A DNA stretch of 33,427 bases from a candidate division WOR-3 bacterium (GTDB taxonomy: Bacteria; Hydrothermota; Tepidihabitantia; Tepidihabitantales; Tepidihabitantaceae). The stretch lies in contig CAIVTL010000054.1 in the NCBI GenBank assembly GCA_903908785.1, forward strand, positions 1 through 33,427, given 5' to 3'. Shown here one piece after another: positions 1-33,427 of the stretch (the stretch's first letter is position 1; each line of letters begins with the position of its first letter). The translations under genes and the position numbers were made by a program. The notes under the pieces were generated by a model. The model did not search any database and was not told the DNA's origin. It saw only the letters and a program-made list of their open reading frames with translations.

Positions 1-103
1 CGACCCCTACCCTTGGTTTTCCTGACTCGCGCCCGCTCCGAACCTGCTGATAATACGGACGTTATGCTCTTTTACCGGTCTGCTCTGACCCCACCTTCTT
101 TCA
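1..103. repeat. Left copy of a ~105-nt element repeated in direct orientation at the right window edge (33323-33427)
   Basis: Hand alignment of 1-103 with 33323-33427. Shared blocks are ctacccttg, ccgctccgaacc, gataatac.gacgttatg, ccggtc and cttctttcaa, at roughly 75-80% identity. The homology is cut by both window edges. Confidence 0.7.
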
Positions 104-409
104 ACGCCATTCCATTCGTAATTCGACCTTCGGACTTCGCACTTTCCCGGCATGCGTCCTCTGCTTCTGTCCGCGGCGCTCGAACGCTGCGTGCGCAAAT
201 GGACCAACCTCGGCCTGGCCCCGGAACTCCTCCAACAGCTTCTCTGTGATTGCCGCCGGAAGTTCCACGCCTGGGGCCAACTCCTGCGCTCGTTCCTCCC
301 GTTGACCTCGGGTCCCCGTCAGGAATTGTTTACTGCGGAGCCTGTCTGGAAACTCGGGTTCGGCCTTTCTGAACCACAACTGGCTGGGCGTCGCTGGTTC
401 GCTGGACAC
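101..409 (-). CDS. Hypothetical small protein (102 aa), weakly supported
   Basis: GTG-initiated ORF rich in E/K/R/Q. The overlapping + strand ORF (152-421) is L/C/W-rich, as expected for an antisense shadow. There is no SD and no recognisable motif. Its stop codon lies inside the window-edge repeat. Confidence 0.25.
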   Translation of the reverse strand: MSSEPATPSQLWFRKAEPEFPDRLRSKQFLTGTRGQREERAQELAPGVELPAAITEKLLEEFRGQAEVGPFAHAAFERRGQKQRTHAGKVRSPKVELRMEWR

Positions 410-3639: not shown

Positions 3640-3682
3640 GGGATTTGGAGTTTGGGATTTGGTGTTTCCCGCTTCGAGCGGG
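3640..3682 (+). repeat. Composite module: four GGRNTTT heptamers followed by a CCCGC-loop-GCGGG hairpin (copy 1 of 3)
   Basis: The heptamers are gggattt ggagttt gggattt ggtgttt, followed by cccgc-ttcga-gcggg. The same architecture occurs at 4164-4204 and 31248-31289. Confidence 0.7.
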
Positions 3683-3774
3683 CAATGTGTTTCTCGAAGT
3701 AGAACTCGCTGTTCGTCTGAACGTATGCTGGATTGTGTCGCGACCGGCGTCGGCACGCGCGTCCGCGCCTGAAT

Positions 3775-3935
3775 CTCAACCCCAACCTTAACCTCAACCT
3801 TGTCCTGTACCTCAACCTTAACCTCTTCCTGTTCCAGAAGCCGTTCCAGAAGCCCAATGCGCTGTCGTTCGCGTCAAAGTCCGTCTCAGACCTCGTTCTA
3901 AACCTCAACCTTAACCTTAACCTATTCCTTCCTCG
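3775..3935. repeat. Hexamer tracts (AACCTY / TCAACC) plus a gttccagaagcc direct repeat
   Basis: The tracts read ctcaaccccaaccttaacctcaaccttgtcctgtacctcaaccttaacctc and aacctcaaccttaaccttaacc. The reverse-complement word family (aaggtt/gaggtt) occurs at 27555-27598 inside a CDS. Confidence 0.7.
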
Positions 3936-4163
3936 ATTGCACCCCCCAGGGCGGTCTCCGGTCTGCCACCCCCACGGGAGCATTGTGGTTCCGCGCCGAC
4001 CGGGGTCTACATGTGGTATGTCCTCATGAATGGGAAGAACGCCCCCCGGCCGCCATACTTCACTGCCACGTCGGCATGTTCCATGACACCGCCGAACCGC
4101 TCCTCGCCCGCAAGCCGTCACGTCCACCACTCCAAACCGTAGCCTGTCGACCGCGCGGCGCGC

Positions 4164-5997: not shown

Positions 5998-6454
5998 GGA
6001 GTTCTCCGCCGTTCGTCGGCAGCCGGACGACCGTCAGCCACAGGTCGTCGATGGCCCGGACGACGTTCATGAACTGTTCAATGTCCACCGGCTTGGTGAT
6101 GTAGCAGTTGGCCTGGAGTTGGTAGCAACGGACGATGTCCTCCTCGGACTTTGAGCTGGTCAGGATGACGACCGGGATGTGCTTGAGCTTCGGGTCGCCC
6201 TTCATCTCACTCAGCACTTCGCGGCCGTCCTTCCTGGGCAGGTTCAAGTCCAGCAGGATGAGGTCGGGCATGGGTTCGCCCGCGTGGTCACCCTCGCGGT
6301 GCAGATACGCCATCGCTGCTTCACCGTCCTGCACCCATTTGACGGTGTTCTTCACTTTGCAGTGCTCCAGAAGATCGATGACCAGCTCGGCATCACCCGG
6401 GCTGTCCTCTATCAGCATGATTGAAATCGGATTGACTTGTTGTTCAACCGCCAT
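5990..6454 (-). CDS. Single-domain response regulator (REC only)
   Basis: Motifs are IMLIEDSPGDAELV, DLILLDLNLPRKDG, PVVILTSS and YITKP. ATG at 6454 is preceded by GGGAGGAA. Confidence 0.9.
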   Translation of the reverse strand: MAVEQQVNPISIMLIEDSPGDAELVIDLLEHCKVKNTVKWVQDGEAAMAYLHREGDHAGEPMPDLILLDLNLPRKDGREVLSEMKGDPKLKHIPVVILTSSKSEEDIVRCYQLQANCYITKPVDIEQFMNVVRAIDDLWLTVVRLPTNGGELLA

Positions 6455-6574: not shown

Positions 6575-8321
6575 GTTCATCAGGTTTCACTGCGGGCCGT
6601 TTTGGCAGCGTGAATTGGAATACCGACCCGCCGCCTTCCGCCGGTTCAACCCAAATCCGACCGCCGTGCCGCTCGATGATTTTCCGGCACAGCGCCAGCC
6701 CGATTCCCGTTCCCGGGTATTCCTGCTCGGTATGCAGTCGCTTAAACACTCCGAATATTCGCTCCGCGTGCTTCGGGTCGATGCCGATGCCGTTGTCCCT
6801 GACCGCGCATTCCCATTCGGTTCCGGCGTCCCGGCAGGAGACAGATACTGTCGGCGGCGTCGCACCGCGGAACTTGACGGCATTGTCGAGCAGGTTCTGG
6901 AAGAGCGAGACGAGCTGGGCTTCATCGCCGAAGACCACGGGCAGGGGGGCGGCATCGATGACCGCTCCTGACTTCTCGATGGCGACGGTGAGGTTCTCCC
7001 TGGCCTGCGCGGCTACGCGGTCAAGATTCACAGGCGCGAAAGGTGCGGCTTTGGCTCCCACGCGTGAGAAAGTCAGGAGGTCGTTCACCAATTGATGCAT
7101 CCGTATGGCCCCGCCCGAGGCATAAGCGATATACTTGTCGGCCTTCTCGTCCAGCCGCCCTTTGTATCGCTGCCCGAGCAGTTCCACGTAGCTCGCCACC
7201 ATCCGCAGTGGCTGCTGCAGGTCGTGCGAGGCCACGTAGGCGAACTGCTCCAACTCCTCGTTGGACCGGGCAAGCTCCTGCGACTTCGCCTCCAGCGCCC
7301 GCTGCGTCACCATCCGCTCCGATGTGTCCCGCATGATTCCGACCGCATGCCACCGGTTGTTGACCCGGATTGCCGAAAGCGAAAGCTCGACCGGCAGTTC
7401 CCGTCCGTCCTTGTGTATTGCCGCGAGGTCAAGCGTCTTGCCGACGGCTGCTCCCTCGCCGGTCAGGAGGAACCGGGGAAATGCCTTGACGAAGGCGTCG
7501 AGGAATCGGGCCGGGGCCAGGAACCGGTGGAGATCGCGGCCGACGACCTCGTCGGCCCGCCAGCCGAAAACCCGCTCGGCGGCAGGATTCCAGTACGCGA
7601 CAGTACCTTCGGAATCCATCATGACGACCGCGTCGTGCGCCGTGGTGAGAATCGTCCGGAGCCGGGCTTCACTTTCTCGCAACTGCATGAGCACGGGATT
7701 GGTTATCCGGTAGAACAGCAGCGAACCGAGCAGGGCAGTGACAAGGGTCACCACCAGGCCGATGAGCCCGGCCTGGACAAACGGTGCCTGGATTTCGGCC
7801 AGGTCGATCTTGGCCACAATCCCCAGGCCGAACTCGCTGAGCGGCTCGTGCGCAGCCAGCACTTCGACCCCGCGGTAGTCCGGACCGATGACCGCGCCGG
7901 AAAGGCCGGACAGAGCCCGGCGCATGGGCTCGCCTCTTGTACCGTTGAACGGAATCACCATAGTGCGCGTGGGACCGGGATGCCGTTGGGGCAGGAGATA
8001 GACGATGCTGTCGCCTTCGCGGCGGGCAAGAGAGAATTCGCCGGTAAGGCCGAAGCCGGTGAACCGCTCGTTGGCATCGCGGACCTGGGCGAGCGTGGCG
8101 GCAAGCGCGTCGCCGTGCCCGGACTCCGTCGGCACCAGGTGGCTGTATTTGGCCTCGTACCGGGCTACCGCCTCTATCATCCGGGCCCCGCTATAGTCAA
8201 TTTCCTCCAACCGGGCCGTCTCTTGAGCGAGTGCCGTCCGATAGAGCAGCCCGATAATCACCGCCGCGACCACGAACACGGCGACCGTGAAGATGCCTGT
8301 GAGCAGCGATATCCGGCGCAT
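6546..8321 (-). CDS. Sensor histidine kinase: TM - periplasmic Cache/PDC-like domain - TM - PAS - HisKA - HATPase_c
   Basis: There are two hydrophobic segments (LTGIFTVAVFVVAAVIIGLL and GLIGLVVTLVTALLGSLLF) and a DYRGVEVLAAHEP...GLGIVAKID Cache-like motif. A PAS domain is present (VVMMDSEGTVAYWNPAAERVFGW). The H-box is ASHDLQQPLR, the N box is LLDNAVKF, and the G boxes are DNGIGI and GTGIGLA. Confidence 0.9.
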   Translation of the reverse strand: MRRISLLTGIFTVAVFVVAAVIIGLLYRTALAQETARLEEIDYSGARMIEAVARYEAKYSHLVPTESGHGDALAATLAQVRDANERFTGFGLTGEFSLARREGDSIVYLLPQRHPGPTRTMVIPFNGTRGEPMRRALSGLSGAVIGPDYRGVEVLAAHEPLSEFGLGIVAKIDLAEIQAPFVQAGLIGLVVTLVTALLGSLLFYRITNPVLMQLRESEARLRTILTTAHDAVVMMDSEGTVAYWNPAAERVFGWRADEVVGRDLHRFLAPARFLDAFVKAFPRFLLTGEGAAVGKTLDLAAIHKDGRELPVELSLSAIRVNNRWHAVGIMRDTSERMVTQRALEAKSQELARSNEELEQFAYVASHDLQQPLRMVASYVELLGQRYKGRLDEKADKYIAYASGGAIRMHQLVNDLLTFSRVGAKAAPFAPVNLDRVAAQARENLTVAIEKSGAVIDAAPLPVVFGDEAQLVSLFQNLLDNAVKFRGATPPTVSVSCRDAGTEWECAVRDNGIGIDPKHAERIFGVFKRLHTEQEYPGTGIGLALCRKIIERHGGRIWVEPAEGGGSVFQFTLPKRPAVKPDEPDGTADERR

Positions 8322-18207: not shown

Positions 18208-18963
18208 CTATGCCGAGCCGTTCGTACGCGAAGAGCCGGTCTGGTCGGCCCGGCTGTGGCCGGGGTCATTGTCGGCGGACAGCGCGGTGATGCGGGCAGA
18301 CAAAGGGGCAAACACCGGAAGAGAAGAGAGACCGGAATCCGCAGCCCAGCGACTCAGCTCCTCCAGCTTGTGCTTGAGCTTGCGCTTGTGCCCGTCGTTT
18401 GCCCGATTCAGCACGCCCCACAGCTTCCGGGCGTAGAGGCGCAGGCGGAAAGCAACCACTGCGCCGGATTCGATGCCGGCTCGGGACAGCTCCTCGGCCA
18501 CGAGGTCATCAAGGCGGCGCTGCGCGTCCTGCGACCGGGCATAGGCCGCAGCCCGGCTGAGTCGCTTGCCCTCAGGTTCGGGCTTGCGTCGTGAGCGGGT
18601 GACCTTGTCGTCGTATCTTCGGACTGCGTCCCAGACACCAGGAGGCAGCTTGCCGGCGAGGCTGCGGACGCGCTTATACCCGCGCTGCTCCAGCACGGTC
18701 GGCTTAGAAGTGTAGGCCTCAAGCAGGTCGGAGATGTCCACAAAAGACGCCCGGCACGCCCGCAGATAATCGGCGACAAACCCGAGCGAAGGGTATGGCG
18801 CTCTGCCCAACTCGACCTTCCCGATGAGCTGATGGTTGCCCTTTCCCTGTCTCCCCATCAGGACTGCCAGTTCCTGTTGAGTGATGCCCTCTTTGAGCCT
18901 CAGCGCACGAAGCCGCAGTCCCATCTCTTCCGTGAACCTGAACATCTCTTTACTCCGGCTCAT
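18208..18963 (-). CDS. XRE-family HTH transcriptional regulator with a long uncharacterised C-terminal region
   Basis: The N-terminal helix-turn-helix reads LRLRALRLKEGITQQELAVLMG. The ATG at 18963 lies only a few nt downstream of a TTGACG-17-TATCAT promoter, which suggests a leaderless mRNA. Confidence 0.8.
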   Translation of the reverse strand: MSRSKEMFRFTEEMGLRLRALRLKEGITQQELAVLMGRQGKGNHQLIGKVELGRAPYPSLGFVADYLRACRASFVDISDLLEAYTSKPTVLEQRGYKRVRSLAGKLPPGVWDAVRRYDDKVTRSRRKPEPEGKRLSRAAAYARSQDAQRRLDDLVAEELSRAGIESGAVVAFRLRLYARKLWGVLNRANDGHKRKLKHKLEELSRWAADSGLSSLPVFAPLSARITALSADNDPGHSRADQTGSSRTNGSA

Positions 18964-19340
18964 TACATGCGCATGATACCAATAAGACTCATGCGCGTCA
19001 ACGGCGGCTGGAGGATAAGCCCTGACAGGAGAACGGGTTTAGGGATTCCGGGGCAGACGCAGCCCCGTTTCCGCCGCAGACCTGAGCATCTCACTGGACC
19101 GGCTCATGCCACGCGCATAATACCAATAAGACTCATGCGCGTTGACGGCGGCGGAGGGATAAGCCCCGACAGCAGCACGGGCTTAGGGATTCCGGGGCAG
19201 TTTCAGCCTCCCCTCCGCCGCAGACATGAGCACCTCACTGGACTGGCTCATGGCGCGCGTATGATATCAATAAGACTCATGCGCGTTGACTGCGACGGGA
19301 GGATAAGCGCCGATGGTAGCGCGGGCTATGGGAGTTGGGG
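18961..19340. repeat. Tandem repeat of a 144-bp unit, about 2.6 copies (unit starts 18961, 19105, 19249)
   Basis: Each unit carries the ataccaataagactcatgcgcg operator core, ggataagc and ttagggattccggggcag. Copies 2 and 3 also carry a decayed copy of the first codons of the XRE gene. Confidence 0.9.
18965..19001 (-). promoter_or_regulatory. Sigma70-type promoter (TTGACG-N17-TATCAT) overlapped by an 8-bp inverted repeat operator GCGCATGA-N12-TCATGCGC
   Basis: The minus strand reads cgccgTTGACGcgcatgagtcttattggTATCATgcgcatgtaATG. The inverted repeat lies at 18969-18976 and 18989-18996. Confidence 0.6.
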
Positions 19341-19365
19341 CGGGAATGGGTCGGTCACGCCGGGG

Positions 19366-19701
19366 GTGAACTCCGGCGTGAATCGCGCCGTGAACTGCGC
19401 TGTGAATGCGGACTTGAGTTGCGCGTTGACTTCAGCCGTGAGCCCGGCGGTGAATAGTGAACTGAAGACGTAAGTGAGTTGCGGTTTGATGTCGGGGTTG
19501 AAGTTGGGCGTGACCGGCGAACTGACATCGCGGTTGAACTCAGCCGTGACCAGCGGCTTGACCGCGCAGTTGAAGCCAGCCGTGACTTGCGTGCTCAGCC
19601 GTGATGTGAACTCGGGCGTGAGGTCCGGGTTCAGAGCCGGGTTGAGCTGCCGCGTGAAGTCCGAACTCAGTCTTGCGGTGATTGCGCAGGTGATGTCCGG
19701 A
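19366..19701. repeat. Array of 28 degenerate units in strict 12-nt phase (consensus KTGA-N8)
   Basis: Units were read by hand: gtgaactccggc gtgaatcgcgcc gtgaactgcgct gtgaatgcggac ttgagttgcgcg ttgacttcagcc ... gtgattgcgcag gtgatgtccgga. No indel breaks the phase over 336 nt. Confidence 0.85.
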
Positions 19702-19865: not shown

Positions 19866-22430
19866 TCAGGGGGCGAAGACGACGCGGGTTGTGGCCGCGC
19901 GGTCAAGGGTCTTGACCCGAACGACATAGACACCGGCGCGGGTATCGGACGCCGGTTTCCAGACGTAGCCGGATGGCGTGGCGACGAGCGCAGAGTTGGG
20001 GTCGGAGCTGGATGCGATGAACCTTCCGGCGGCGTCGTAGATGCGGGCAGAGGTGGTCGAGTGGTCAAGTGGTCCGGTGGTCAAGTGAATGAGAAGGGAG
20101 GTGCGGAAGGGGTTGGGGCGGGCGGAGATGGTGCGTGCGAAGCCCGTGGCCTTGTGTCCGTCGGCCAGCCCGACGAACGGGGAGAGCTTGCCCCATATGC
20201 GGGTCGTGTTCGTCACGCGGCCGCCGATTGAGTCTGTCCAACCATCCCAGGTCGCGAGGACACGGCCGGAGGCGTTCGAGGTCAGGGCCGGGAGCGACTC
20301 GCTACCGGTGCCCCGCATGACCGCGAACGTGTCGAGCACGGTGCCGAGCGTACTCACTCGAGCTCCGTGGATGGTCGTGCTGTCCATACCCCATGCCTGC
20401 CAGGCGACGATGTAGTCGGTACCGTCGAACGTGACTGTCGGTTCAGTGGCCGGGTCCGTTGATACGGCCAGGCCCGCTGTGTCGAGCACGGTGCCGGTAC
20501 GTGTCACGCGGGCGGCGTAGACGCCGACAGCGTCCCCCGATGTCCAGACAACCAGGTAGCTGCCTCCGCCGTAGGCAATGGCTGGTTCCCGGAGGTTGTT
20601 CTCGCCTGCTGCGATTTCGATTCCCGCGGTATCGAGCACGACCCCCGCCTGAGTGACGCGAGCACCGTAGATGTCAAAGTGCGGGAGCGTGTCCGGTCGG
20701 CGAGTATCTACCCAGGTGATGAGGTAGTCGGTGCCGTCAAATGCCACCGCCGGTTCGTACTTGTCCGGCGGCGCCACGGACACAACGAAGTTGGCGGGGT
20801 CGAGCAGATGTCCCCTTTCGTTTACGCGTGCAGCGTATATGTCGTCGCTCATGTTATTGGCCTCGTGCTGCCAGACGACTAGAAAAGCCGTTTCACAGGC
20901 AGCTACGGCCGGCTCAAACTGGAAGTCGCCACGTATCGCGACTGCAATCCCAGATGTATCGAGGACGTGTCCTGACGGGCTCACCCGCGCTGCATAGATA
21001 TCAGAGTAGTTGTTACCTTCCCGCCAGTCTTCCCATGCGACGAGATAGCAGGTACTGCAAGCGGCAACCGACGGGGCGGTCCCGCGTGAGACAGGAAAGG
21101 GCCGCGGGTCCAACAGGCCTCCCTGGGACGAGACCCGCGAGGCATATATGTCACATGTCGGCCCGCGACGATAGTCTTGCCATGCGACCAGGAAGTCGGT
21201 TCCATCAGAGGCACAGCATGGGGATGACTGCTCGTAGACGCCCGAGGAAACGAGAACCTCGGCAGTGTCGAGGACGTTTGCGTCCGGGGTCAACCTGGCG
21301 CCGAACACATCTTGACGCCATGCGCCTTCGTAGCAGTCCCAGACTACCCAGAAGTTGGTGCCGTCAAAGACGGCAGCCTGCCCCGTCAGCCCGCCGTTCA
21401 TCCGGTTGATTCGGAACCCGTCCGGGTCGAGTACGCCTCCCGATTGGTCAATGCGGCAACCACAGGCCCCTTGCGGCCCGCTGAATGCCACGAGATAGTA
21501 CGGGCTTCCGAACGTCACGGAAGCATCACCCTCGTTCTGGTCGGCCGTCGCAACCGGGATCCCGCCTGAGTCGAGCACCACGCCGGACCGAGTCACCCGT
21601 GTCGCGAAGACGTCGTACTGGGAGTTCCGGGCGCGGTCCCACGTAACAAGGAAGTAGTCGCCGCCGAATGCCACCGACTGCCCGTACGTCCTGGCAGTGT
21701 CCGCTACGATCAGGATGCCCGCAGTGTCCAGAACGTCTCCGGACGGAGTCACCCGCGCACCGTAGACGTGGACGCCGTCTTGAGTGCTCGTCCATATCAC
21801 CATGTAGTTGGAGTCACCAAATGCAATCTCCTGGGCGCACTGGTAGCCAATGGAGCGAGTTACCGCAAATCCGCTGGGGTCCAGAACGGTTCCGCTCTGG
21901 TTCAAGCGAGCGGCGTAGATGTCAGTGTTGTCCTGTTGCCAAGCCACCAGGTAGTTCGTGCCATCGAACGCGATTGACGGGTCAGCGGCGTAGGCAGAGA
22001 TCGGTGACACCTTGATCGGTGGCTCGTCAAGGACTTGGCCCGAGCGCGAGACACGTGTGCCGCAGATGGCGCCACCGGGCGCGTCCCACACGACGAAGTA
22101 GTTTGTGCCGTCGAAGGCGACTCGCGGATGTTCGTTGGTTACCAGGGGATCGGTTATGCTGAAACCGCAACTGTCCAAGAGCCGGCCCGAGTTGTCAACG
22201 CGGGCGGCGTATATGTCATAGCCGTAGTGATCCGTCCGGCCGTCCTGCCAGACGACGAGGTAGTTTGTTCCATCCCACGCCGTGACTGCCTCATACTGTC
22301 GGTAAGGAGCACGCGCGTAGACCACCTGCGAATCGAGCAGGAATGCGTCAGGGTCGGGCGGGTCGGCGGCGGCCAGCCCGGCGAGGATGAGAAGCGGCGC
22401 GGCGAGCAGGGACAGGTTCGTTTTGAGCAT
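19866..22430 (-). CDS. Exported protein with ~14 tandem ~50-aa repeats (FDGTNYLVVW...DIYGARV...G.VLD..GI.V) and T9SS C-terminal sorting domain
   Basis: ATG at 22430 follows GGAGG, and the signal peptide is MLKTNLSLLAAPLLILAGLAAA. The repeats were read directly from the translation. The C-terminus is NPFRTSLLIHL...IYDAAGR...GVYVVRV...RVVFAP. Confidence 0.85.
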   Translation of the reverse strand: MLKTNLSLLAAPLLILAGLAAADPPDPDAFLLDSQVVYARAPYRQYEAVTAWDGTNYLVVWQDGRTDHYGYDIYAARVDNSGRLLDSCGFSITDPLVTNEHPRVAFDGTNYFVVWDAPGGAICGTRVSRSGQVLDEPPIKVSPISAYAADPSIAFDGTNYLVAWQQDNTDIYAARLNQSGTVLDPSGFAVTRSIGYQCAQEIAFGDSNYMVIWTSTQDGVHVYGARVTPSGDVLDTAGILIVADTARTYGQSVAFGGDYFLVTWDRARNSQYDVFATRVTRSGVVLDSGGIPVATADQNEGDASVTFGSPYYLVAFSGPQGACGCRIDQSGGVLDPDGFRINRMNGGLTGQAAVFDGTNFWVVWDCYEGAWRQDVFGARLTPDANVLDTAEVLVSSGVYEQSSPCCASDGTDFLVAWQDYRRGPTCDIYASRVSSQGGLLDPRPFPVSRGTAPSVAACSTCYLVAWEDWREGNNYSDIYAARVSPSGHVLDTSGIAVAIRGDFQFEPAVAACETAFLVVWQHEANNMSDDIYAARVNERGHLLDPANFVVSVAPPDKYEPAVAFDGTDYLITWVDTRRPDTLPHFDIYGARVTQAGVVLDTAGIEIAAGENNLREPAIAYGGGSYLVVWTSGDAVGVYAARVTRTGTVLDTAGLAVSTDPATEPTVTFDGTDYIVAWQAWGMDSTTIHGARVSTLGTVLDTFAVMRGTGSESLPALTSNASGRVLATWDGWTDSIGGRVTNTTRIWGKLSPFVGLADGHKATGFARTISARPNPFRTSLLIHLTTGPLDHSTTSARIYDAAGRFIASSSDPNSALVATPSGYVWKPASDTRAGVYVVRVKTLDRAATTRVVFAP

Positions 22431-22505: not shown

Positions 22506-24755
22506 CTAGGGCGTGAAGACGACGCGGGCGGTTGCGGTGCGGGCGGCGGTTTGCACGCGGATAAGGTAGACGCCGGCGTGCTGACCTCGGAAGTCCAGCG
22601 CGATTTCCGATTTCGGATTCGAGATTCGGAGTTGACGGCAGAGGCGGCCTTGGGCGTCGAAGATGTGGACAGATGTGGTCGAGTGGTCAAGTGGTCCAGT
22701 GGTCAAGTGAATGAGAAGCGAGGTGCGGAAGGGGTTGGGCGATGTGCTCAGCGCGGCGCGGGGGTCGGATGGGACGTGGCTTGGTTCAGCCAGGCCGACG
22801 AACTGCCTGGTCTGGTAGAGTTCGAGGGGATATCCCGGGGTCAGGTTGCGGCCCGACAAACCGGGGTAGTCCGGCGGATAGCGCAGCGCGCGGAACGTGT
22901 TGTTCTGTTTGCCGGACGCGCCGCCGGGCACGGTGTCTCCCTGGTACAGCCGGGTCGAGTCGGTCGCGGGACTCAAGTAGTGCCAGACAATCTGGCTGTC
23001 GCGGGTCACCTCGAAGAAGGCGCCGAGGTCGCTTTCGCAGATAAGCGTGTTCCCGTTCGGGAATCGCTGCGCGCCGCCCATGGTCGCAGAGAAGAGGCTC
23101 GCCGGCGGCGTGGCGACGTAGACCCAGCATTGCGCGGCCGGCCCGAACGGGGTTCCGGGTGCGGGTCGCGGGTAGTTGCCGGCGCTGTCGCACGGGGGGA
23201 TGAATTCGTCAACCGATGAGTAGCCCCGGCCGTCGATGCCGTTGTTGAACAATAGAATGTGCCCGGCGCCCGGCAAGCCCGGCCCAATCCACTGTGCGTT
23301 GTGCTGGCCGAAGAGCTTGCGGTCCGTGGTGTCGCCGGCGCGGTAGGCGCGCGGGTTGCCCCAGCGGTAGAGCAGGTCGCCGCCCATGCCGAACCGGCCG
23401 CCGGTGTGACCGCGCGCTTCCTCGGTGGTTGTGCTGTGGTCAATGACCCAGACCTCGTTCAGGTTGTGGATGCTCAGTATTACCTGGTCGAAATCCGGGT
23501 TGTAGGCGACGGAGTTCACGTGCAGCCAGTCCGGCGCGCCGCGCAGCGGGGGCGGGCCGGTGAAGTTGATGTCCGCGAGTTCGGAGTGCTGGGCCGGGTC
23601 GCCGTAGTTGGCCTTGGTCGAGTCGTAGTCCTGGATGAGATGGTCCCAGACGTGCCACTCCCACACGATGCTGTCCGTGGCCGGGTTGACTTCGACGACG
23701 TGGTCGGGCCAGAGCTTGTTCTGGACGAGCCAGGACGGGTTGCGGCCGGCGGCGACCGCTTCGGCGCGCGTCTTGAGTTCCCATGCCACGAGCAGGACGT
23801 TGCCGTTCGGTAGCGACGCGATGTCGTGGTGCTGGCAGTGCAGGGTGCTGGAATACTGGTAGGACCATTGTAGGCTGCCGTCCCAGTCGTACCGCTCGAC
23901 CCGACCGCCGGTTCCTCCGCCGGGGAAGCTTGAGTTGCCCAGTCGCGCGCTGCGCAGCAGGCTGCCGTCTTCGAGCAGGTAGCAGGACGCGCCGGGCGGA
24001 TAGCTGCTGTGCCAAGTGCGGACGAGCCGGCCCTTGTTGTCAATCAAGTACGTGAACTTGTACGAAAGCGGGGTGAACAATGTGTAGCCGACGAAGGCGG
24101 AGCTGTCGTTGCGGAACAGGCCGAGCGTCTGCGAGTCGGCCGAGAGCTCGCGGACGAAGCCGCGGATGGAGCCGTCAAGGCTACTGAGGTCATTCCACGT
24201 CGGCACCCGCACGCCGGTCGACTCGCCGAAGTGGAGTGCATTCTCGTTGCCGCCCTGGTTGTCCGGCTCGCCCGGAGACCATTTGCGGAAGCCCATTGCC
24301 TCGTTCGTGACCCAGTGCCAGCCGCTGTCCGGTTCGTGTGAGCCGAAGTCCTGGGTGCCGCCCAGCCAGGGCCCGGCCAGCAGGCCCGTGCCGGGTCGCT
24401 CGTACCAGTAGACACCGGAGTCGACCAGGCCGAACACGAAATCGTTCTCGGCCGGCGACGTGACGGTGGCAAGGTAGCCGCCGTGTCCGAGAGCCGAGTC
24501 CCAGGCGAAATTCCAGTCGATGCCGTCGGGTGTGCTTATAGCGTGGTAGTAGTGCACACTCCCGTCAGGGTGGAACCAGGGCTCAGGCTGAGCGGCAGCC
24601 CAGCCGACGGTCAGACAGAGAAAGAGGAATGAAGAACGAAGAACGAGGAACGAGGAACGAGGAATGAGGAGTGAGGAACGAGGAGTGAAGAAGGAGGAAC
24701 GAAGGGTGAAGAACGAGGAACGAAGTAACGATGAACGAAGAACGGTTGTGCGCAT
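22506..24755 (-). CDS. C-type lectin domain + arylsulfotransferase (ASST)-like beta-propeller + T9SS C-terminal sorting domain
   Basis: The lectin region reads W..AWDSALGHGGYLATVTSPAENDFV...GPWLGG...GWHWVTNE...WSPGEPDN..GNENALHF...WNDL. ASST-like blocks include HHDI..LPNGNVLL, DWLHVNSV.YNP..DQVILS and LLYRWGNPRAY. The CTD reads NPFRTSLLIHL...IFDAQGR...GVYLIRV...RVVFTP. ATG at 24755 follows AGGAGA. Confidence 0.85.
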   Translation of the reverse strand: MRTTVLRSSLLRSSFFTLRSSFFTPRSSLLIPRSSFLVLRSSFLFLCLTVGWAAAQPEPWFHPDGSVHYYHAISTPDGIDWNFAWDSALGHGGYLATVTSPAENDFVFGLVDSGVYWYERPGTGLLAGPWLGGTQDFGSHEPDSGWHWVTNEAMGFRKWSPGEPDNQGGNENALHFGESTGVRVPTWNDLSSLDGSIRGFVRELSADSQTLGLFRNDSSAFVGYTLFTPLSYKFTYLIDNKGRLVRTWHSSYPPGASCYLLEDGSLLRSARLGNSSFPGGGTGGRVERYDWDGSLQWSYQYSSTLHCQHHDIASLPNGNVLLVAWELKTRAEAVAAGRNPSWLVQNKLWPDHVVEVNPATDSIVWEWHVWDHLIQDYDSTKANYGDPAQHSELADINFTGPPPLRGAPDWLHVNSVAYNPDFDQVILSIHNLNEVWVIDHSTTTEEARGHTGGRFGMGGDLLYRWGNPRAYRAGDTTDRKLFGQHNAQWIGPGLPGAGHILLFNNGIDGRGYSSVDEFIPPCDSAGNYPRPAPGTPFGPAAQCWVYVATPPASLFSATMGGAQRFPNGNTLICESDLGAFFEVTRDSQIVWHYLSPATDSTRLYQGDTVPGGASGKQNNTFRALRYPPDYPGLSGRNLTPGYPLELYQTRQFVGLAEPSHVPSDPRAALSTSPNPFRTSLLIHLTTGPLDHSTTSVHIFDAQGRLCRQLRISNPKSEIALDFRGQHAGVYLIRVQTAARTATARVVFTP
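24624..24728. repeat. 15 in-register heptamers GARGAAC (105 nt) encoding residues ~10-44 of the lectin/ASST protein
   Basis: The units read gaggaat gaagaac gaagaac gaggaac gaggaac gaggaat gaggagt gaggaac gaggagt gaagaag gaggaac gaagggt gaagaac gaggaac gaagtaa. The translation shows a 7-aa period (RSSFFTL RSSFFTP RSSLLIP RSSFLVL). Confidence 0.9.
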
Positions 24756-24764
24756 GTGATTCTC

Positions 24765-26156
24765 CTATTCCACTACCAGTTTCCGTGTCGCGGAGCCGCC
24801 GGCGTAGTCGAGCTTAACCAGATAGACCCCGGCGGCCAGGCCGGTAACTCGTAACTCGCAACTCGTAACCCGCAACTCGCTCAGCACCAGCTTGCCGGTG
24901 ACGTCGTAGAGGGAAAGGGAGGAGGGAGGAGAGAGGAGGGAGGAGCTGTAACTGATGGTCGTCGACGAGTGGCAGGGGTTCGGGGAAACGGTGAACGATG
25001 AACGATGAACGTTGAACGAGTGTCCGGTCAGGCCGGTCATCAGAATAAACCCCAGCGAGTCGGTTTTCACCAGCAGTACGCTGCCGCCGGCGGAGTCGGA
25101 CGTGCCGGCAACCACGTAGCCGCCGTCCGCGGTCTGCCGGACAGAAGCGGCCTGTTCCATACCGGTTCCGGGCAGCACGCTCGTCCAGACCGTGTCGGCA
25201 TTGGAGTCGAGCTTGACCAGCCAGGCCCGGGCCGAGTCGCCCCAGTCAATGGTACCGGCGATGATGTAGCCGCTGTCGCTGGTTGGCTGCATCGCTGTCG
25301 CCCTGGTTGCCGCTCCGGGAACAGCGATTTGGCGGGTCCAGAGCAGAGCGCCGACGCTGTCGGTGCGGAGTAGATAGAGTGCGTCAAGTGACTGGAGCGT
25401 GTCGATTTCGGAGCCGGCGGCAAGGAATCCGCTGTCCTGCGTCTCCGTCACTGCTTTAAGCATCGGCGCCACCGGGCCGTGGTATGTCCGCGTCCATGCT
25501 GAATCGCCGTTCGGCCGCAGGCGCGCGAGGCGCATGTAATTCGCGACATAGTCGTTGGCAATGCCGCAGAGGACGAAGCCTCCGTCGCGGGTCTGGGCCG
25601 CGCCATGCGCCCAGGAGTCGTACATCCTCGGTTCATCGTACCAGCGCGCCCATTCTTCCTGACCGTCTGCGGCCAGTTTGATGGCGCCCATGTCGAACGC
25701 GGTGTCCGGTATCCGACCGGCGACGAGGCAGCCGCCGTCGGAAGTGGGGATGATTGTCGAGACCGGCCCGCCCCAGGTTGACTGATAGTTCCAGAGCGAG
25801 TCATCCGCCGGGCCGAACCCACGGACGAAAATCCTGCCGGCGGACTCGGCCAGGACCGCATAGCCGCTGTCAGCCACGCGGCACGAGAGACCGCCGTCCG
25901 CGTCCAGGCCGAAGATGTGACGTACGGAAAGTGTGTCGCCCAGGGAGTCGGTCCGCACCAGCACGACTCCGAAACTACCGGATGCGACGTGGGTCCCGCC
26001 GCTCGTGACGTACCCGCCATCGGGGAGCTGTGCCGCGGAGCGGCCGGTATCGGCAATGTACCAGTGCCAGCGGTTCTCGAACGTAATCGTCGCCAGCGCC
26101 AGCGCGGGCAGCGCGAGCAGTATCAGCGCTCTGCCGGTTCGGCACGGGGCGCGCAT
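24765..26156 (-). CDS. Exported repeat (propeller-like) protein with T9SS C-terminal sorting domain, paralogue A
   Basis: The signal peptide is ALILLALPALALA. It has recurring DGGY..(A)G......d.wlvK.ds.G...W motifs. The CTD reads NPCHSSTTISY...LYDVTGKLV...GVYLVKL...RKLVVE. By eye it is more than 60% identical to 26198-27604. Confidence 0.8.
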   Translation of the reverse strand: MRAPCRTGRALILLALPALALATITFENRWHWYIADTGRSAAQLPDGGYVTSGGTHVASGSFGVVLVRTDSLGDTLSVRHIFGLDADGGLSCRVADSGYAVLAESAGRIFVRGFGPADDSLWNYQSTWGGPVSTIIPTSDGGCLVAGRIPDTAFDMGAIKLAADGQEEWARWYDEPRMYDSWAHGAAQTRDGGFVLCGIANDYVANYMRLARLRPNGDSAWTRTYHGPVAPMLKAVTETQDSGFLAAGSEIDTLQSLDALYLLRTDSVGALLWTRQIAVPGAATRATAMQPTSDSGYIIAGTIDWGDSARAWLVKLDSNADTVWTSVLPGTGMEQAASVRQTADGGYVVAGTSDSAGGSVLLVKTDSLGFILMTGLTGHSFNVHRSSFTVSPNPCHSSTTISYSSSLLSPPSSLSLYDVTGKLVLSELRVTSCELRVTGLAAGVYLVKLDYAGGSATRKLVVE

Positions 26157-26197: not shown

Positions 26198-27604
26198 CTA
26201 TTCAACCACCAGTTTCCGCGTCGCGGTGCCGCCGTCGCAGTCGAGCTTGAGCAGGTAGACACCGGCCGGCATTGACCGGAGGTCAAGCCGGAATGACGAC
26301 GAACGAGGAACGATGGACGATGAACGATGAACAAGGACCAGGTAGCCGGTGACGTCGTAGAGGCGGAGGGAGGAGGGAGCAGTGAGGAGGGAGGAGACCA
26401 GGACGAAGCCGTGGCAGGGGTTGGGCGTGAAGGAGAGGCGTAAGGGGCGGGGGTTGGGGGGCGAGGGTTCTTCAATGCCAATCCGGCCCAGCGAATCGGT
26501 CTTGATTGCCATCATGCGGCCACCGGAGAGGTCGCTCGAACCGGCGATAATGTACCCGCCGTCCGTCGTCTGTTCGATGTCGGCCGCGTTCTCCCGCCAC
26601 GGCCCGCCCACGACGCGGGTCCAGGTCGTGTCGCAATCGGCATCGGTCTTGACCAGCCAGGCCCGGGCCGAGTCGCCCCAGTCAATCGAGCCGGCGATCA
26701 TGTAGCCGCCGTCCCGGGTTGCGCACATCGCCGCCGCCTGGGCCGCGGCGCCGGGAGGCGCGAGGTGGCGGGTCCAGAGCGTATCGCCGGTGGAGTTGGT
26801 GCGCAACATGTAAAGGGCATTGCGGCTGCTTGAGGTGTCGAACTCGTACCCGACCGCGAGGAACCCGCCGTCCGACGTCTCCCGCACGTCACTCAGCATC
26901 GGGCCGACCGGGCCGTGGTACAACCGGGTCCAGGCCGAGTCGCCGTTCGGCCGGATTCGAGCCAGCCGCATGTTGACCGAGGTGTAGTCGTTGGACTCGC
27001 CGCAGAAAATGTAGCCGCTGTCCCGGGTCTGGGCGGCGCCATGCGCCCAGGAGTCAAACATCCGCGGCTCATCGTACCAGCGCGCCCACTCCTCGTGGCC
27101 ATCCGCGGCCAGCTTGATGGCGCCCATGTCGTACGCCGTGTCCGGAATCCGGCCGGCAAGAAGGCAGCCGCCGTCGAAGGTCGGGATGAATGCCGAGACC
27201 GGGCCGCCCCAGGTTGACTGGTAGTTCCAGAGCGAGTCACCCGCCGGGCTGAACCCGCGCACGAAGATTCTTCCGCCGGACTGGGCCAGGACCGCATAGC
27301 CGCCGCCGGTCAGCCGGCACGAGAGGCCGCCGTCCGGGTCCACGTCGAGAATCTGGCGTACCGAAGTCGTGTCTCCGGAGTCGTTGGTCCGCGCCAGCAC
27401 GACGCCGTAGCTGCCGGTAGTGACCTGCATGCCGCCGCTGATGATGTAACCGCCATCCGGGAGCTGGGCCGCGGCGCGGCCGACATCCGCGATGTACCAG
27501 TGCCACCGGCGCACAAAGTTGGGGGATGCCAGCGCCAGCACCGGGATTGCCAGGAGGAGTAAGGTCAAGGTTGAGGTTAAGGTTGAGGGTGAGGAACGGC
27601 GCAC
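26198..27604 (-). CDS. Exported repeat (propeller-like) protein with T9SS C-terminal sorting domain, paralogue B
   Basis: GTG at 27604 lies 7 nt after GGAG and 4 nt after the upstream stop. The domain plan matches 24765-26156. The N-terminal PSTLTSTLTLLLL is encoded by aaggtt-type hexamers (27555-27598). Confidence 0.8.
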   Translation of the reverse strand: MRRSSPSTLTSTLTLLLLAIPVLALASPNFVRRWHWYIADVGRAAAQLPDGGYIISGGMQVTTGSYGVVLARTNDSGDTTSVRQILDVDPDGGLSCRLTGGGYAVLAQSGGRIFVRGFSPAGDSLWNYQSTWGGPVSAFIPTFDGGCLLAGRIPDTAYDMGAIKLAADGHEEWARWYDEPRMFDSWAHGAAQTRDSGYIFCGESNDYTSVNMRLARIRPNGDSAWTRLYHGPVGPMLSDVRETSDGGFLAVGYEFDTSSSRNALYMLRTNSTGDTLWTRHLAPPGAAAQAAAMCATRDGGYMIAGSIDWGDSARAWLVKTDADCDTTWTRVVGGPWRENAADIEQTTDGGYIIAGSSDLSGGRMMAIKTDSLGRIGIEEPSPPNPRPLRLSFTPNPCHGFVLVSSLLTAPSSLRLYDVTGYLVLVHRSSSIVPRSSSFRLDLRSMPAGVYLLKLDCDGGTATRKLVVE

Positions 27605-31295: not shown

Positions 31296-32399
31296 TCAAT
31301 TGTCGCCCAGAACCCGTCGCGTCGCGGCCGCGTGCTCGGCCAGCGTGCGGGAAAAGGTGTGCGTGCCGTCACCGTTGGCAACGAAGAAGAAATAGTCGTG
31401 TCGCTCGGGATTGAGCGCGGCCGCAAGCGCCCGACGGCCGGGATTGGAGATGGGGCCGGGCGGCAGGCCGGCGTGGAGGTAGGTGTTGTAGGGCGACTCG
31501 ATTCGCGTGTCGGCCACAGTCAGGATTCCCTTGCGTTCGGGCAGGAGACACTCGACCGTCGCGCAGGACTGGAGCGGCATGCCGCGGCGCAGGCGGTTCA
31601 TGAACACGCCGGCGATGCGGTCAAACTCCTCCGGAACCTTGGCCTCGCGCTCGACGATGGACGCCAGGATGACGGTCTGAGAAGGGGGGAGGGGCGAGGG
31701 GCGAGGGGCGAGTGACGAGTCGCGGAGTTCAGAGAAGACGGAGGAGAACTGGCGGAGCAAGCGGCGGACGACGTCGCCGGGCGGCGAGTTGGTCAGGAAC
31801 TCGTAGGTCTCCGGAAACAGGTAACCCTCGGCCGTGGGTCCGGTCACGGCGAACTCCCTGAGCAGGTTGGTGTCGGCGCAGGCGGCAAGGAAGCTGTCGG
31901 CCCGGCAGATGCCGCGTTCCGCAAGTGCCGCGGCAACTTCGTTCATCGTGAAGCCTTCAGGTATCGTGACCATCACGAGCGCGGGTTCCTCGCGGGACAG
32001 CAGTTTGAGCACGCGCCTTTCACCGATGCCGACCGGCAGGCGGTAGCGGCCCGGCCTGATGCGCGGCGCGTAGTTGTAGTACCAGGAATAGAAGAAAAAC
32101 AGGGGCTTGGAGCCGATAACCTGCCGGGCTGTGAGCGTATCGGCGAGCGCGCGGATGCTCAACTCCGGCTGGATGCTCACCTCAACGCGGCGGCCACTCG
32201 TCTTCGCCGCTTTCGGGGAACCACACGCGACAAAGGACAAAATGACAAGGAAAAAGGACAAAGTAACAAAGACAAAGGACAAAGCAAACGGGAAAGGACA
32301 AAGTGCAGAGGCCCGGTCCGTTTTGGCCTTGGTACTTTCCACTTGCTTTGTCCTTACGACTTTGTCCTTAGTACTTGACCCGAGATCTCGCGTCGTCAC
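31296..32399 (-). CDS. mltG: Endolytic murein transglycosylase MltG (YceG family)
   Basis: Motifs are GYLFPETYEF, ILASIVEREA, GVFMNRL...MPLQSCATV, SPYNTYLHAGLPPGPISNPG and FFFVANGDGTHTFS. GTG start at 32399 lies 15 nt after the ruvX stop. The N-terminal TM segment is repeat-encoded. Confidence 0.9.
   Translation of the reverse strand: MTTRDLGSSTKDKVVRTKQVESTKAKTDRASALCPFPFALSFVFVTLSFFLVILSFVACGSPKAAKTSGRRVEVSIQPELSIRALADTLTARQVIGSKPLFFFYSWYYNYAPRIRPGRYRLPVGIGERRVLKLLSREEPALVMVTIPEGFTMNEVAAALAERGICRADSFLAACADTNLLREFAVTGPTAEGYLFPETYEFLTNSPPGDVVRRLLRQFSSVFSELRDSSLAPRPSPLPPSQTVILASIVEREAKVPEEFDRIAGVFMNRLRRGMPLQSCATVECLLPERKGILTVADTRIESPYNTYLHAGLPPGPISNPGRRALAAALNPERHDYFFFVANGDGTHTFSRTLAEHAAATRRVLGDN
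32229..32366. repeat. GACAAAG heptamer block (32229-32303) and inverted CTTTGTC copies (32346-32366) inside the 5' end of mltG
   Basis: The forward block reads gacaaag gacaaaa tgacaag gaaaaag gacaaag taacaaa gacaaag gacaaag ..., followed by ctttgtc at 32346 and 32360. Confidence 0.85.
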
Positions 32400-32414: not shown

Positions 32415-32873
32415 CTAGCCCCTTCTGGCTGCGAGGAAATCCTCGAGGATGATTGTCGCGGCGATTCGGTCCACGGCCCGCTTGTGCTTCGGCGCGCCGT
32501 GGCTGATGCGCGGCTGGTGGTGCACCTTCAACTCGGGGTCGAAGTACGTGCGCTCCAGCACGTGCGCCGCGCGCACCGTGGAGAACCGCTCGTCGTGGAA
32601 CTCCACCGGCAAGCCGGCTGCCTTCTTGAGCTGTCCGGCAAAGGACCGCACCTGCACGGAGCGCTTGCTCGGTTTCCCGGACTGGCCAAGAGGGAGGCCG
32701 AAAACCACCTCATCAACCTCCTGCTCGCAGATGACCTTCAGGAGAGCCTTGAGCAGGTGCTGCTCATCCTTGTGCTCGATAGTCGGCAGACCCTGCGCGA
32801 TGGTCCTCGTAATGTCCGACACCGCGACCCCGGTCCGGCGCTTGCCAAAGTCAATGCAGAGGATTCTACCCAT
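32415..32873 (-). CDS. ruvX: YqgF/RuvX family putative Holliday junction resolvase / pre-16S rRNA nuclease
   Basis: Motifs are MGRILCIDFGKRRTGVAVSD, VVFGLPL and FHDERFSTV. The ruvX-mltG gene order is widely conserved. Confidence 0.9.
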   Translation of the reverse strand: MGRILCIDFGKRRTGVAVSDITRTIAQGLPTIEHKDEQHLLKALLKVICEQEVDEVVFGLPLGQSGKPSKRSVQVRSFAGQLKKAAGLPVEFHDERFSTVRAAHVLERTYFDPELKVHHQPRISHGAPKHKRAVDRIAATIILEDFLAARRG

Positions 32874-33018
32874 AGTATCTAAGTGTAGGATACGGCCCGC
32901 GCACTGTCCAGCAGATAGGGTCTGGAGAGGACCGCGGCGCGGCCCGCAACACCCATCGTTGCGACCTGCGTCCCGGCCCGCTTGTACCTGCCCCGCTGCG
33001 GTCTGCGCTGCGCGTGCG

Positions 33019-33318
33019 GAAGGCTCCCGCCAAACTCCTCGCGAAGCTCTCTGCGAAGCTCATTCGTAAGCTCCTGTCGAAGCTCTCTACATTGCTCATT
33101 CGGAAGCTCATTACGAAGCTCCCTTCGAAGCACCTTTCGATGCGTCTTTCGTCGCTTCCTTCGTCGCACATTGCGAAGCTCCTTTCGTCGCACATCACGT
33201 TGCTCATGTCGAAGCTCCTTTGGAAACTCACGACGAAGCTCCCTTGGAAGCTCACAAGGAAGCTCCTTTCGATGCTCTCTTCGATGCTGCTTCGGTTGCT
33301 CCTTCTGATGCTGCCCAG
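33019..33318. repeat. Array of 25 degenerate units in strict 12-nt phase (consensus GAAGCTCNNNNC)
   Basis: Units were read by hand: gaagctctctgc gaagctcattcg taagctcctgtc gaagctctctac ... gaagctcctttc gatgctctcttc gatgctgcttcg gttgctccttct. No phase break occurs over 300 nt. Confidence 0.85.
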
Positions 33319-33322
33319 AGGG

Positions 33323-33427
33323 TGACCTCTACCCTTGATTCTCCCCGCTTGCTTCCGCTCCGAACCCGCCGATAATACTGACGTTATGACCATTTTGTCC
33401 GGTCCCGCCCAAGGCGTCTTCTTTCAA
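33323..33427. repeat. Right copy of the window-edge element (partner of 1-103)
   Basis: See the feature at 1-103. It has the same orientation and runs to the last base of the window. Confidence 0.7.

Follow-up and report, generated by a model that had tools for sequence, protein, structure and literature searches.

A phased 12-nucleotide array upstream of a gene for a predicted capsid-like protein in candidate division WOR-3 bacteria

Introduction

Near the right end of a stretch of DNA from a candidate division WOR-3 bacterium (GenBank assembly GCA_903908785.1, contig CAIVTL010000054.1, positions 1 to 33,427 of the forward strand; this whole stretch of 33,427 nucleotides (nt) is called the window here), a tandem array of degenerate 12-nt units occupies the space next to the gene ruvX, and the question is what such an array might be: a protein gene with a periodic product, a part of the ruvX promoter region, a neutral repeat, or a functional element of another kind. 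Judging by comparison with related DNA, the array is the upstream cis part of a recurrent, multi-copy module in candidate division WOR-3 genomes, the other part being a gene for a protein of 246-250 amino acids (aa) that is best read, from profile comparison and a structural model, as a fusion of two paralogous domains with the capsid protein fold of the archaeal virus SIRV2. This module of array and capsid-like gene is previously undescribed, and a literature search on WOR-3 tandem repeats found nothing relevant.

Results

The array and its counterparts in relatives

Cut into 12-mers on the plus strand from position 33019, the array comprises 25 units in a single phase with zero insertions or deletions (indels), so that the phased architecture recognised in the original prediction is borne out. 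The consensus in this register is GAAGCTCCTTTC, with positions 1 and 4-7 near-invariant, positions 8-11 the most variable and positions 2, 3 and 12 intermediate; put differently, the unit consists of a 7-nt core and five variable bases. The word GAAGCTCNNNNC is matched by 14 in-phase units within 33043-33282, seven of them exactly and seven with one mismatch, the other units being more degenerate. Identity at lag 12 is 0.618, compared to 0.261 +/- 0.027 in dinucleotide shuffles (z = 13.4), and a lag-12 scan of the whole window finds its strongest 12-periodic stretch at this place; Tandem Repeats Finder reports a period of 12, 20.9 copies and 63% matches. Counted in the register of the junction motif described below, the array spans 26 units (Table 1). 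The parallel that had been drawn with another array of the window, at 19366-19701, is likewise correct in that the latter is also 12-periodic. Several familiar categories were tried and rejected. In a CRISPR (clustered regularly interspaced short palindromic repeats) array, repeats of 23-50 nt would alternate with unique spacers of about the same size, as opposed to a period of 12 nt; a structured non-coding RNA is not indicated by folding of the array, for which comparison with shuffles gave z = -1.25 on the minus strand and +0.59 on the plus strand, or by Rfam, which at the gathering threshold yielded no family anywhere in the window, and there was no tRNA match either; and palindromic cores (AGCT, GGCC, GANTC) as hairpin or methylation marks are inconsistent among the unit types.

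The exact RuvX protein is encoded on several same-strain metagenome contigs, in which the arrays are identical to that of the window save for one single-nucleotide polymorphism. At the species level, relatives with RuvX 81-94% identical were drawn from WOR-3 metagenome-assembled genomes (MAGs) and metagenomes, namely, L003, L004 (the same as L030), L029, L031 (with the near-identical L032) and L033, and all five carry an indel-free 12-nt array at the equivalent place. The arrays of the window, L004 and L031 have the core GAGCTTY in common and can be aligned without gaps, unit by unit, including the central 'SD/CD/SN' variant units; between the window and L004, one core position has changed from C to T in 22 of the 25 units. 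The array of a further locus, L045, is nearly identical to that of the window, by eye. The unit sequences in L003, L029 and L033 are unrelated to the window type, and in L033 the flanks are nevertheless near-identical to those of the window, so that the whole array appears to have been exchanged like a cassette. With position and phase kept free of indels in the relatives, and with the unit order also kept in three of these arrays, the original judgement that the array is not junk holds.

A side observation concerns L031, in which an insertion sequence with a 409-aa rve-type transposase (891-2120 and 2120-2170, with direct copies of TGTTACCTATGTCCTGA) sits exactly at the junction side of the array, so that the capsid-like gene and its promoter-like site are displaced. 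Arrays can also be concatenated or paired: in L045, a second 12-nt array (GATTnnnnnnnn) at 6230-6400 directly follows the window-type one, and in L052, a type-2-like array (1-230) lies on the far side of a capsid-like gene fragment. In L047, downstream of a window-type array, positions 600-715 hold an out-of-frame remnant of a C-terminal domain of the type IX secretion system (T9SS), GLPAGVYFLRVAQAQAQAQATVRVVKTR with a stop after it, and then a 7-nt array GTTAGCA/GGTAGCA.

A recurrent module with a fixed register

In the module, the 12-nt array (24-32 units) is followed by the junction motif CCCTACCC, a TTGCnn-16-GATAAT site, a leader and the gene for the 246-250-aa protein, in this order. The junction motif was seen in nine modules (the window, L003, L004, L033, L045, L052, L053, L055 and L056) and the TTGCnn-16-GATAAT site was read at equal offset in seven (the window, L003, L004, L033, L053, L055 and L056), with exactly 22 nt from the first base of the junction motif to that of the -35 element. 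The last array unit in the window, CCAGAGGGTGAC, is the local form of a junction unit (approximately CCnnnnAGYGAC) that is conserved in all modules. Every family member examined that has upstream DNA on its contig is preceded by a 12-nt array ending at CCCTACCC, and direct repeats adjoining the family gene on its upstream side are conserved in at least nine modules. In L053, L055 and L056, the arrays, of 24-32 units each, end at the junction motif amid unrelated neighbours, L055 being a second copy of the module in the MAG to which L003 belongs. In the window, the gene runs away from ruvX and its ATG lies 26 nt past position 33427. The 'window-edge element' that had been delimited at 33323-33427 is thus real as a sequence feature, and its identity can now be given as the junction motif, the candidate promoter and the leader of the adjacent gene.

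When the 12-nt units are counted backwards from the junction motif, four unit types emerge (Table 1) that are unrelated in sequence and yet stand in one register to the junction, each having G as its eighth base, a pyrimidine as its ninth and C as its twelfth; an inspection by eye of the pattern of weak and strong bases across the unit types showed nothing clear beyond G at 8 and C at 12. The array, the junction and the promoter-like site form a single indel-free lattice, and this argues for constraint at the DNA level. Two further features of the junction region were considered and discarded. A hairpin AGRGG-TCAC-CCYCT covaries in some copies and is absent from L045 and L033. A minus-strand promoter, CGGACA-18-TATTAT, was called by the promoter scan, but neither L003 nor L056 conserves its -35 element, and the plus strand is the preferred reading.

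The window also holds, at its left edge, a second and decayed copy of the module, in which a truncated paralogue of the 246-aa gene has its ATG at 152 and a tblastn match at 167-319 (E = 3e-8); the array of this copy would fall to the left of position 1. A weak, inverted fragment of the C-terminal domain follows at 612-866 (tblastn E = 0.02). As to genes beyond the module, in L003 (4126-4792) and L054 (940-1606) two small conserved genes, for products of 160 aa and 64 aa, come after the capsid-like gene; they are 54-56% identical between the two loci and have no family match; other modules have different downstream genes.

The adjacent protein resembles capsid proteins of archaeal filamentous viruses

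At least 212 clusters make up the family of the 246-aa protein, and there is no Pfam domain in any of them; the few members named at source are hypothetical proteins, and the only named ones come from WOR-3 MAGs. Its AlphaFold model (predicted local distance difference test, pLDDT, 81) has two helical domains, residues 1-115 and 150-246, joined by a disordered linker rich in arginine and lysine, and in both domains an extended N-terminal helical arm precedes a four-helix bundle at the C-terminus. The protein is basic, with 41 K+R versus 24 D+E and a net charge of about +17. Against PDB and BFVD, Foldseek ranks highest the coat proteins of SSRV1, SIRV2, SIRV and AFV1 (probability 1.0, root-mean-square deviation 1.4-2.5 A, target-normalised TM-score 0.56-0.81). 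At the sequence level, Pfam Sulf_coat_C is matched by 15 of 34 members and SFV1_VP4 by five, in each case below the gathering threshold, the best E-value among the members being 1.5e-5. An exhaustive profile search retrieved many single-domain relatives of 118-157 aa, each matching the N-terminal or the C-terminal half only, one named relative of this kind again coming from WOR-3. When the profile of the C-type single-domain proteins was compared with 177,635 PDB sequences, capsid proteins of the Adnaviria accounted for eight of the top 10, with SSRV1 (E = 2.4e-4) and AFV1 ORF132 (1e-3) in the lead and AFV1 ORF140, SIRV2 and SFV1 following. The N-type and C-type profiles are themselves homologous (hhalign probability 96.7%, E = 3.7e-10), and the 246-aa protein is accordingly described here, on profiles and model, as an apparent two-domain fusion, to which the heterodimer of major capsid proteins MCP1 and MCP2 in lipothrixviruses is analogous. 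Searches of PHROGs and NCBIfam with the 246-aa protein gave no matches, a single-sequence search of PDB gave nothing significant, and no relatives of the family were found in IMG/VR, among the INPHARED phages or among the PLSDB plasmids. The setting of the gene is not that of a demonstrated virion protein encoded by a virus: it is present in multiple copies on MAG contigs, among housekeeping genes.

The array is probably not a protein gene

The periodic frames that had been quoted for the minus strand are correct, the xSFx tetrapeptides lying inside an open reading frame (ORF) of 175 aa and the RxEL periodicity in a second minus-strand frame. The original prediction had also raised the alternative of a genuine periodic protein gene, to be recognised by homologues with a conserved reading frame; this alternative is unlikely, and the array is probably not a protein gene, as far as can be judged from the comparisons that follow. 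Among 5.8 billion proteins searched, the 175-aa ORF has only six homologues (P0001-P0006), all of them unnamed metagenome ORFs, whose sequences after the array are mutually unrelated and whose indels are whole units, that is, multiples of four residues. No reading frame stays open across the array in all relatives: in L031, there is a TGA inside the array and the xSFx frame has no start codon before the twelfth aligned unit, the L033 array has stops in all six frames, and the L003 array holds an ORF of 67 aa at most. Seven close DNA variants of the array differ by exact 12-nt indels, and the 88 substitutions among them are distributed 37/26/25 over xSFx codon positions 1/2/3, the third position being the least variable. 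There is no significant 3-periodicity of these substitutions in any frame (chi-square 3.0, p = 0.22), whereas their heterogeneity over the 12 positions of the unit is significant (p = 0.02). The start codon of the 175-aa ORF is not conserved and has no Shine-Dalgarno motif before it, as read from the sequence; gene callers assign the array ORF to opposite strands of the module in different copies; and translation of the four consensus units in every frame gave no peptide in common, though nucleotide positions 8 and 12 are shared.

That the array encodes a tetrapeptide-repeat protein, whether xSFx from the minus strand (the 175-aa ORF) or xAxx/EAPF from the plus strand, therefore seems to us very improbable. 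It is true that the window and the six metagenome homologues all have the ORF open, that indels come in multiples of four residues and that the plus-strand EAPF frame is slightly richer in third-position change (25/26/37 at positions 1/2/3), but the EAPF frame of the window contains a TAA, and the frames, starts, tails and substitution pattern just described all speak against a protein. The hypothetical proteins that gene callers assign to such arrays, on one strand or the other, are probably spurious.

The ruvX side of the array

Pfam confirmed the identities originally assigned to ruvX, on the minus strand at 32415-32873 (Pfam RuvX, E = 4e-34), and to the neighbouring mltG/YceG. The array had also been thought to lie in the ruvX-mltG promoter region, and this is not supported: ruvX has its own conserved site, TGGACA-17-TACACT-8-ATG, directly at the gene (32882-32910), beyond a spacer that separates it from the array and that is unalignable among the relatives, its length being estimated at 37 to about 140 nt. 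Nor is a tie between the array and ruvX supported, because arrays with the family gene occur at loci that lack ruvX, L053 and L056; the array type of the window itself recurs without ruvX in L045, L047, L048 and L050, and the contigs bearing the six homologues of the 175-aa ORF show it in varied settings. As a side observation, ruvX appears to be leaderless or nearly so (32873-32910, minus strand); TGGACA-17-TACACT ends 8 nt before the ATG. L004 and L033 keep this site, and slightly altered forms of it stand in L003, L029 and L031.

Discussion

A possible positioning track for a capsid-like protein

In the virions of SIRV2, AFV1 and PFV2, the asymmetric unit consists of one capsid-protein dimer and 12 bp of A-form DNA (PMC5517147, PMC7189273), and the fold of these capsid proteins has been called one without precedent in viruses of bacteria and eukaryotes (PMC7189273). 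The coincidence of this dimer footprint with the exact 12-bp period of the array, maintained over 24-32 units, leads us to propose that the array is a landing and positioning track of the adjacent protein, in which each 12-bp unit would seat one pseudo-dimer, a short filament would form, and its register would be set with respect to the promoter; such binding is predicted, and we hold the proposal tentatively, as a possibility that falls somewhat short of probable. On this proposal, the protein would bind the array, one molecule per unit, with the DNA in the A-form, and would regulate its own gene. Under the proposed mechanism, one fused pseudo-dimer would occupy one 12-bp unit, and the array would serve as an in-register track for nucleation and positioning of a short nucleoprotein solenoid of approximately 25 subunits, which by virion geometries would amount to roughly 1.6-2.7 turns. 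Given that the promoter-like site lies at a fixed distance in the same register, the filament could control its own gene: once lengthened by a few subunits, it would lie over the -35 and -10 elements and so produce feedback on expression. Recognition would proceed mainly via the periodicity and a few shared positions (G at 8, C at 12) rather than via the whole unit sequence, and such recognition would explain why unit sequences can be swapped.

Compared to the Adnaviria (SIRV2 and SSRV1 of Rudiviridae, AFV1 and SFV1 of Lipothrixviridae, PFV2 of Tristromaviridae), the WOR-3 protein is alike, in its model, in the four-helix bundle with a helical arm, profile comparison pointing to a probable homology, and the array is alike in that its period equals the virion DNA repeat per dimer. 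By contrast, the WOR-3 protein has both domains in one chain, its gene is chromosomal, multi-copy and bacterial whereas the viral ones come from viruses of hyperthermophilic archaea, its DNA binding and the A-form are predictions, and the viral capsid proteins coat the whole genome without sequence preference. To our knowledge, no proteins but the capsid proteins of Adnaviria are known to keep double-stranded DNA in the A-form along its whole length, and we know of no 12-bp sequence array reported for them. The arrays at tubC (with TubR), parC (with ParR) and the omega heptads resemble the WOR-3 module in that the operon of a putative polymerising protein has a short array of direct repeats immediately upstream, and autoregulation is typical of these systems; tubC, which has seven 12-bp direct repeats (10.1101/2022.04.29.490116), even shares the period. 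However, TubR, ParR and omega are winged helix-turn-helix or ribbon-helix-helix proteins that are specific to their repeats and operate with an NTPase motor, whereas the WOR-3 module has no motor gene and an unrelated fold, and arrays of the tubC type have 7-10 units as opposed to 24-32 degenerate ones that do not covary with the protein. In the rotational positioning of nucleosomes (Widom 601), as proposed for the array, the periodicity is matched to a DNA-wrapping lattice and the exact sequence is secondary, but there the signal is dinucleotides with a period of about 10 bp rather than explicit 12-bp tandem units, and the protein is different. Finally, the heptamers of cyanobacterial short tandemly repeated repetitive (STRR) sequences and the microsatellites of contingency loci are comparable to the WOR-3 genome, which is rich in 7- and 8-nt arrays, and in which copy number changes by whole units between strains; contingency repeats, however, are homogeneous and lie inside ORFs or promoters, switching expression, whereas the units of the array are only about 63% alike, their position and phase are conserved across species, their order is conserved in the window, L004 and L031, and they stand in a fixed register to the promoter-like site.

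A number of observations weigh against the positioning track. The fold match is limited in weight, four-helix bundles being common, and the Foldseek E-values of the capsid matches are weak (0.1-0.35); all the Pfam coat matches are sub-gathering (22.1 versus 25.2 bits in one member); and the geometry between the two domains of the model is uncertain (predicted TM-score, pTM, 0.48). The TTGCTT-16-GATAAT site is, by virtue of its conservation, a candidate promoter, and a consensus promoter scan does not call it, TTGCTT matching TTGACA at only three of six positions. The L033 protein is a mosaic, with an N-terminal half resembling that of the window and a C-terminal half resembling that of L004, and the array of L033 is unrelated to both of the corresponding arrays; the unit sequence does not, then, covary with the protein, and recognition would have to be largely sequence-independent. 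Furthermore, there are many 7-, 8- and 12-nt arrays in the genome that have no adjacent family gene, among them the 12-nt arrays of the window at 3661-3972 and 19297-19700, so that a period of 12 has a non-trivial prior and general slippage clearly operates. A general repeat-generating process is clearly active, and it could be the whole story.

This last possibility, namely, that slippage and templated patching fill DNA under low constraint, with slippage moving whole units and the array lying upstream by descent and without a binding function, is the alternative to be taken most seriously, even if we consider it unlikely. About fifteen 7-, 8- and 12-nt arrays are present in the window, some of them coding for a signal peptide, for the transmembrane helix of MltG and for T9SS C-terminal domains, and exact strings of 20-24 nt are common to arrays and coding low-complexity segments; the exact 12-nt indels between close variants, the cassette replacement between near-identical flanks in L033 and the presence of a window-type array at other loci (L045) are also what such a process would produce. 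It does not readily account for the single register that the four unit types keep to the junction and promoter-like site, with G8, C12 and the last unit conserved, for the confinement of array length to 24-32 units, for the gapless unit alignment of the window, L004 and L031 down to 81% RuvX identity next to an unalignable spacer, or for the period of 12 in all modules examined, none of which has period 7, the commonest in the genome.

Two other explanations appear rather improbable, each to much the same degree. The module might be the remnant or end of an integrated Adnaviria-like filamentous double-stranded DNA virus or another mobile element, with the array as its terminal repeat or packaging-nucleation site; the apparent homology of the adjacent protein to capsid proteins, the multiple copies at variable loci, often followed by ORFs without a family match, the many contigs that break at the module and the recurrence of some downstream genes are compatible with such an origin. 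Set against this are the lack of relatives in the three virus and plasmid collections named above, the fact that the module has no integrase gene, replication gene or further virion gene conserved alongside it, the housekeeping neighbours (ruvX and genes for thioredoxin-reductase-like, DprA and Obg proteins), and the two-domain fusion and strongly conserved candidate promoter at fixed distance, which resemble a resident cellular gene. Alternatively, the array could be an iteron- or centromere-type operator that is bound sequence-specifically, without wrapping, either by a different regulator or by the adjacent protein in the role of an ordinary repressor. Direct repeats immediately upstream of a promoter-like site and a gene for a basic protein are reminiscent of tubC with TubR, and the change of the core from C to T in 22 of 25 units between the window and L004 would fit such specificity; but the unit type does not covary with the protein, unrelated types standing next to very similar proteins, no partner NTPase is adjacent (there is no ParA, ParM or TubZ-like gene nearby), and no DNA-binding Pfam domain is recognised in the product of the adjacent family gene.

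Returning to the positioning track, the agreement between the period and a known 12-bp footprint gives it the merit of a specific, testable mechanistic prediction. A broader scenario, for which our confidence is lower still, is that WOR-3 bacteria took up a capsid protein that wraps A-form DNA, of a kind met to date in filamentous viruses of hyperthermophilic archaea alone, fused its two subunits and spread it through the chromosome as a multi-copy module with 12-bp positioning arrays on which short solenoids form. If so, this would be the first cellular and the first bacterial use of this principle of DNA packaging, and the first natural DNA 'written' to the 12-bp lattice of a capsid-type protein. 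Fused homologues as a resident, multi-copy family of a bacterial phylum would bear on the origin of the realm Adnaviria, a cellular ancestor being one possibility and capture from viruses the other, and the finding would also bear on the repertoire of bacterial chromatin proteins and on the ways in which the register of a protein lattice can be laid down in DNA sequence.

Features of the locus and other short-period arrays

Table 1. Coordinates of the features in the window, and the unit types of the arrays in the register counted backwards from the junction motif
Feature	Position or loci	Strand	Sequence and remarks
12-nt phased array, 26 units	33015..33326	+	unit consensus TTTCGAAGCTCC, equal to GAAGCTCNNNNC shifted by 4 nt
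Junction (anchor) motif	33327..33334	+	CTCTACCC; family consensus CCCTACCC; directly after the array in every module examined
Promoter-like site	33349..33376	+	TTGCTT-16-GATAAT; points away from ruvX toward the 246-aa gene
5' leader of the 246-aa gene	33377..33427	+	GATAATAC-N5-GTTATG; cut by the window end; alignment with same-strain contig L002
175-aa 'xSFx' ORF	32866..33393	-	judged a by-product of a stop-free repeat unit, probably not a gene
Second, decayed module copy	5..319	+	CCCTACCC at 5-12; GATAAT at 49-54; left window edge
Type 1 unit	window, L045, L052, L004		TTTCGAAGCTCC
Type 2 unit	L003, L055		TGACAGAGTCTC
Type 3 unit	L033, L053		CCGCGTTGTATC
Type 4 unit	L056		GGGTCGAGCTAC

Two 12-nt arrays of the window besides the one near ruvX deserve description. 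That at 19297-19700, with a unit of about CGTGAACTnnGn, is followed by 2.6 copies of a 144-nt repeat (18955-19327), by which an HTH_31 gene (18208-18963, minus strand) has its start codon and the sequence upstream of it in triplicate, and the end of the array, GGCGTGAC with a C-rich motif after it, is similar to the junction in the capsid-like modules; a BLASTP comparison of the 246-aa protein with the HTH_31 protein found no relation. The array at 3661-3972, the third of period 12 (6+6), has CTCAAC/CTTAAC units, is intergenic after a T9SS gene for a multicopper oxidase, and is flanked by TTGGGATTTGG repeats; the capsid-like gene is not adjacent to it.

Arrays of 7 nt are found within genes. 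In the minus-strand gene 22506-24755, about 18 copies of CGTTCCT (coding strand) at 24620-24744 encode the signal-peptide region at the N-terminus of an arylsulfotransferase-like, T9SS-secreted protein of 749 aa (MRTTVLRSSLLRSSFFTLRSSFF...), with a protein repeat of seven residues. At 32229-32303, 11 copies of GACAAAG encode the predicted transmembrane helix of MltG/YceG, and a 7-nt array equivalent in place is present in L003 (6649-6876). Short 7-nt arrays at 24844-25019 and 26296-26396 lie inside the Por_Secre_tail domains (T9SS C-terminal sorting) of two paralogous genes and replace the variable stretches of that domain. Some strings are shared between repeats: an identical 24-nt string, GAGTTGCGGGTTACGAGTTGCGAG, occurs in the window at 24855-24878 (minus strand, coding for a T9SS C-terminal domain) and in L004 at 7883-7906 (the tail of the 12-nt array), and 20 nt of the L033 array (1157-1176) are equal to window positions 27569-27588, in a signal-peptide region. 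These shared strings of 20-24 nt suggest a transfer of patches between repeats. Finally, an 8-nt repeat (GTGGTCAA/GTGGTCCA) is common to 20053-20087 and 22675-22709, in the C-terminal regions of two different T9SS genes, where it encodes the shared peptide ...LIHLTTGPLDHSTTS....

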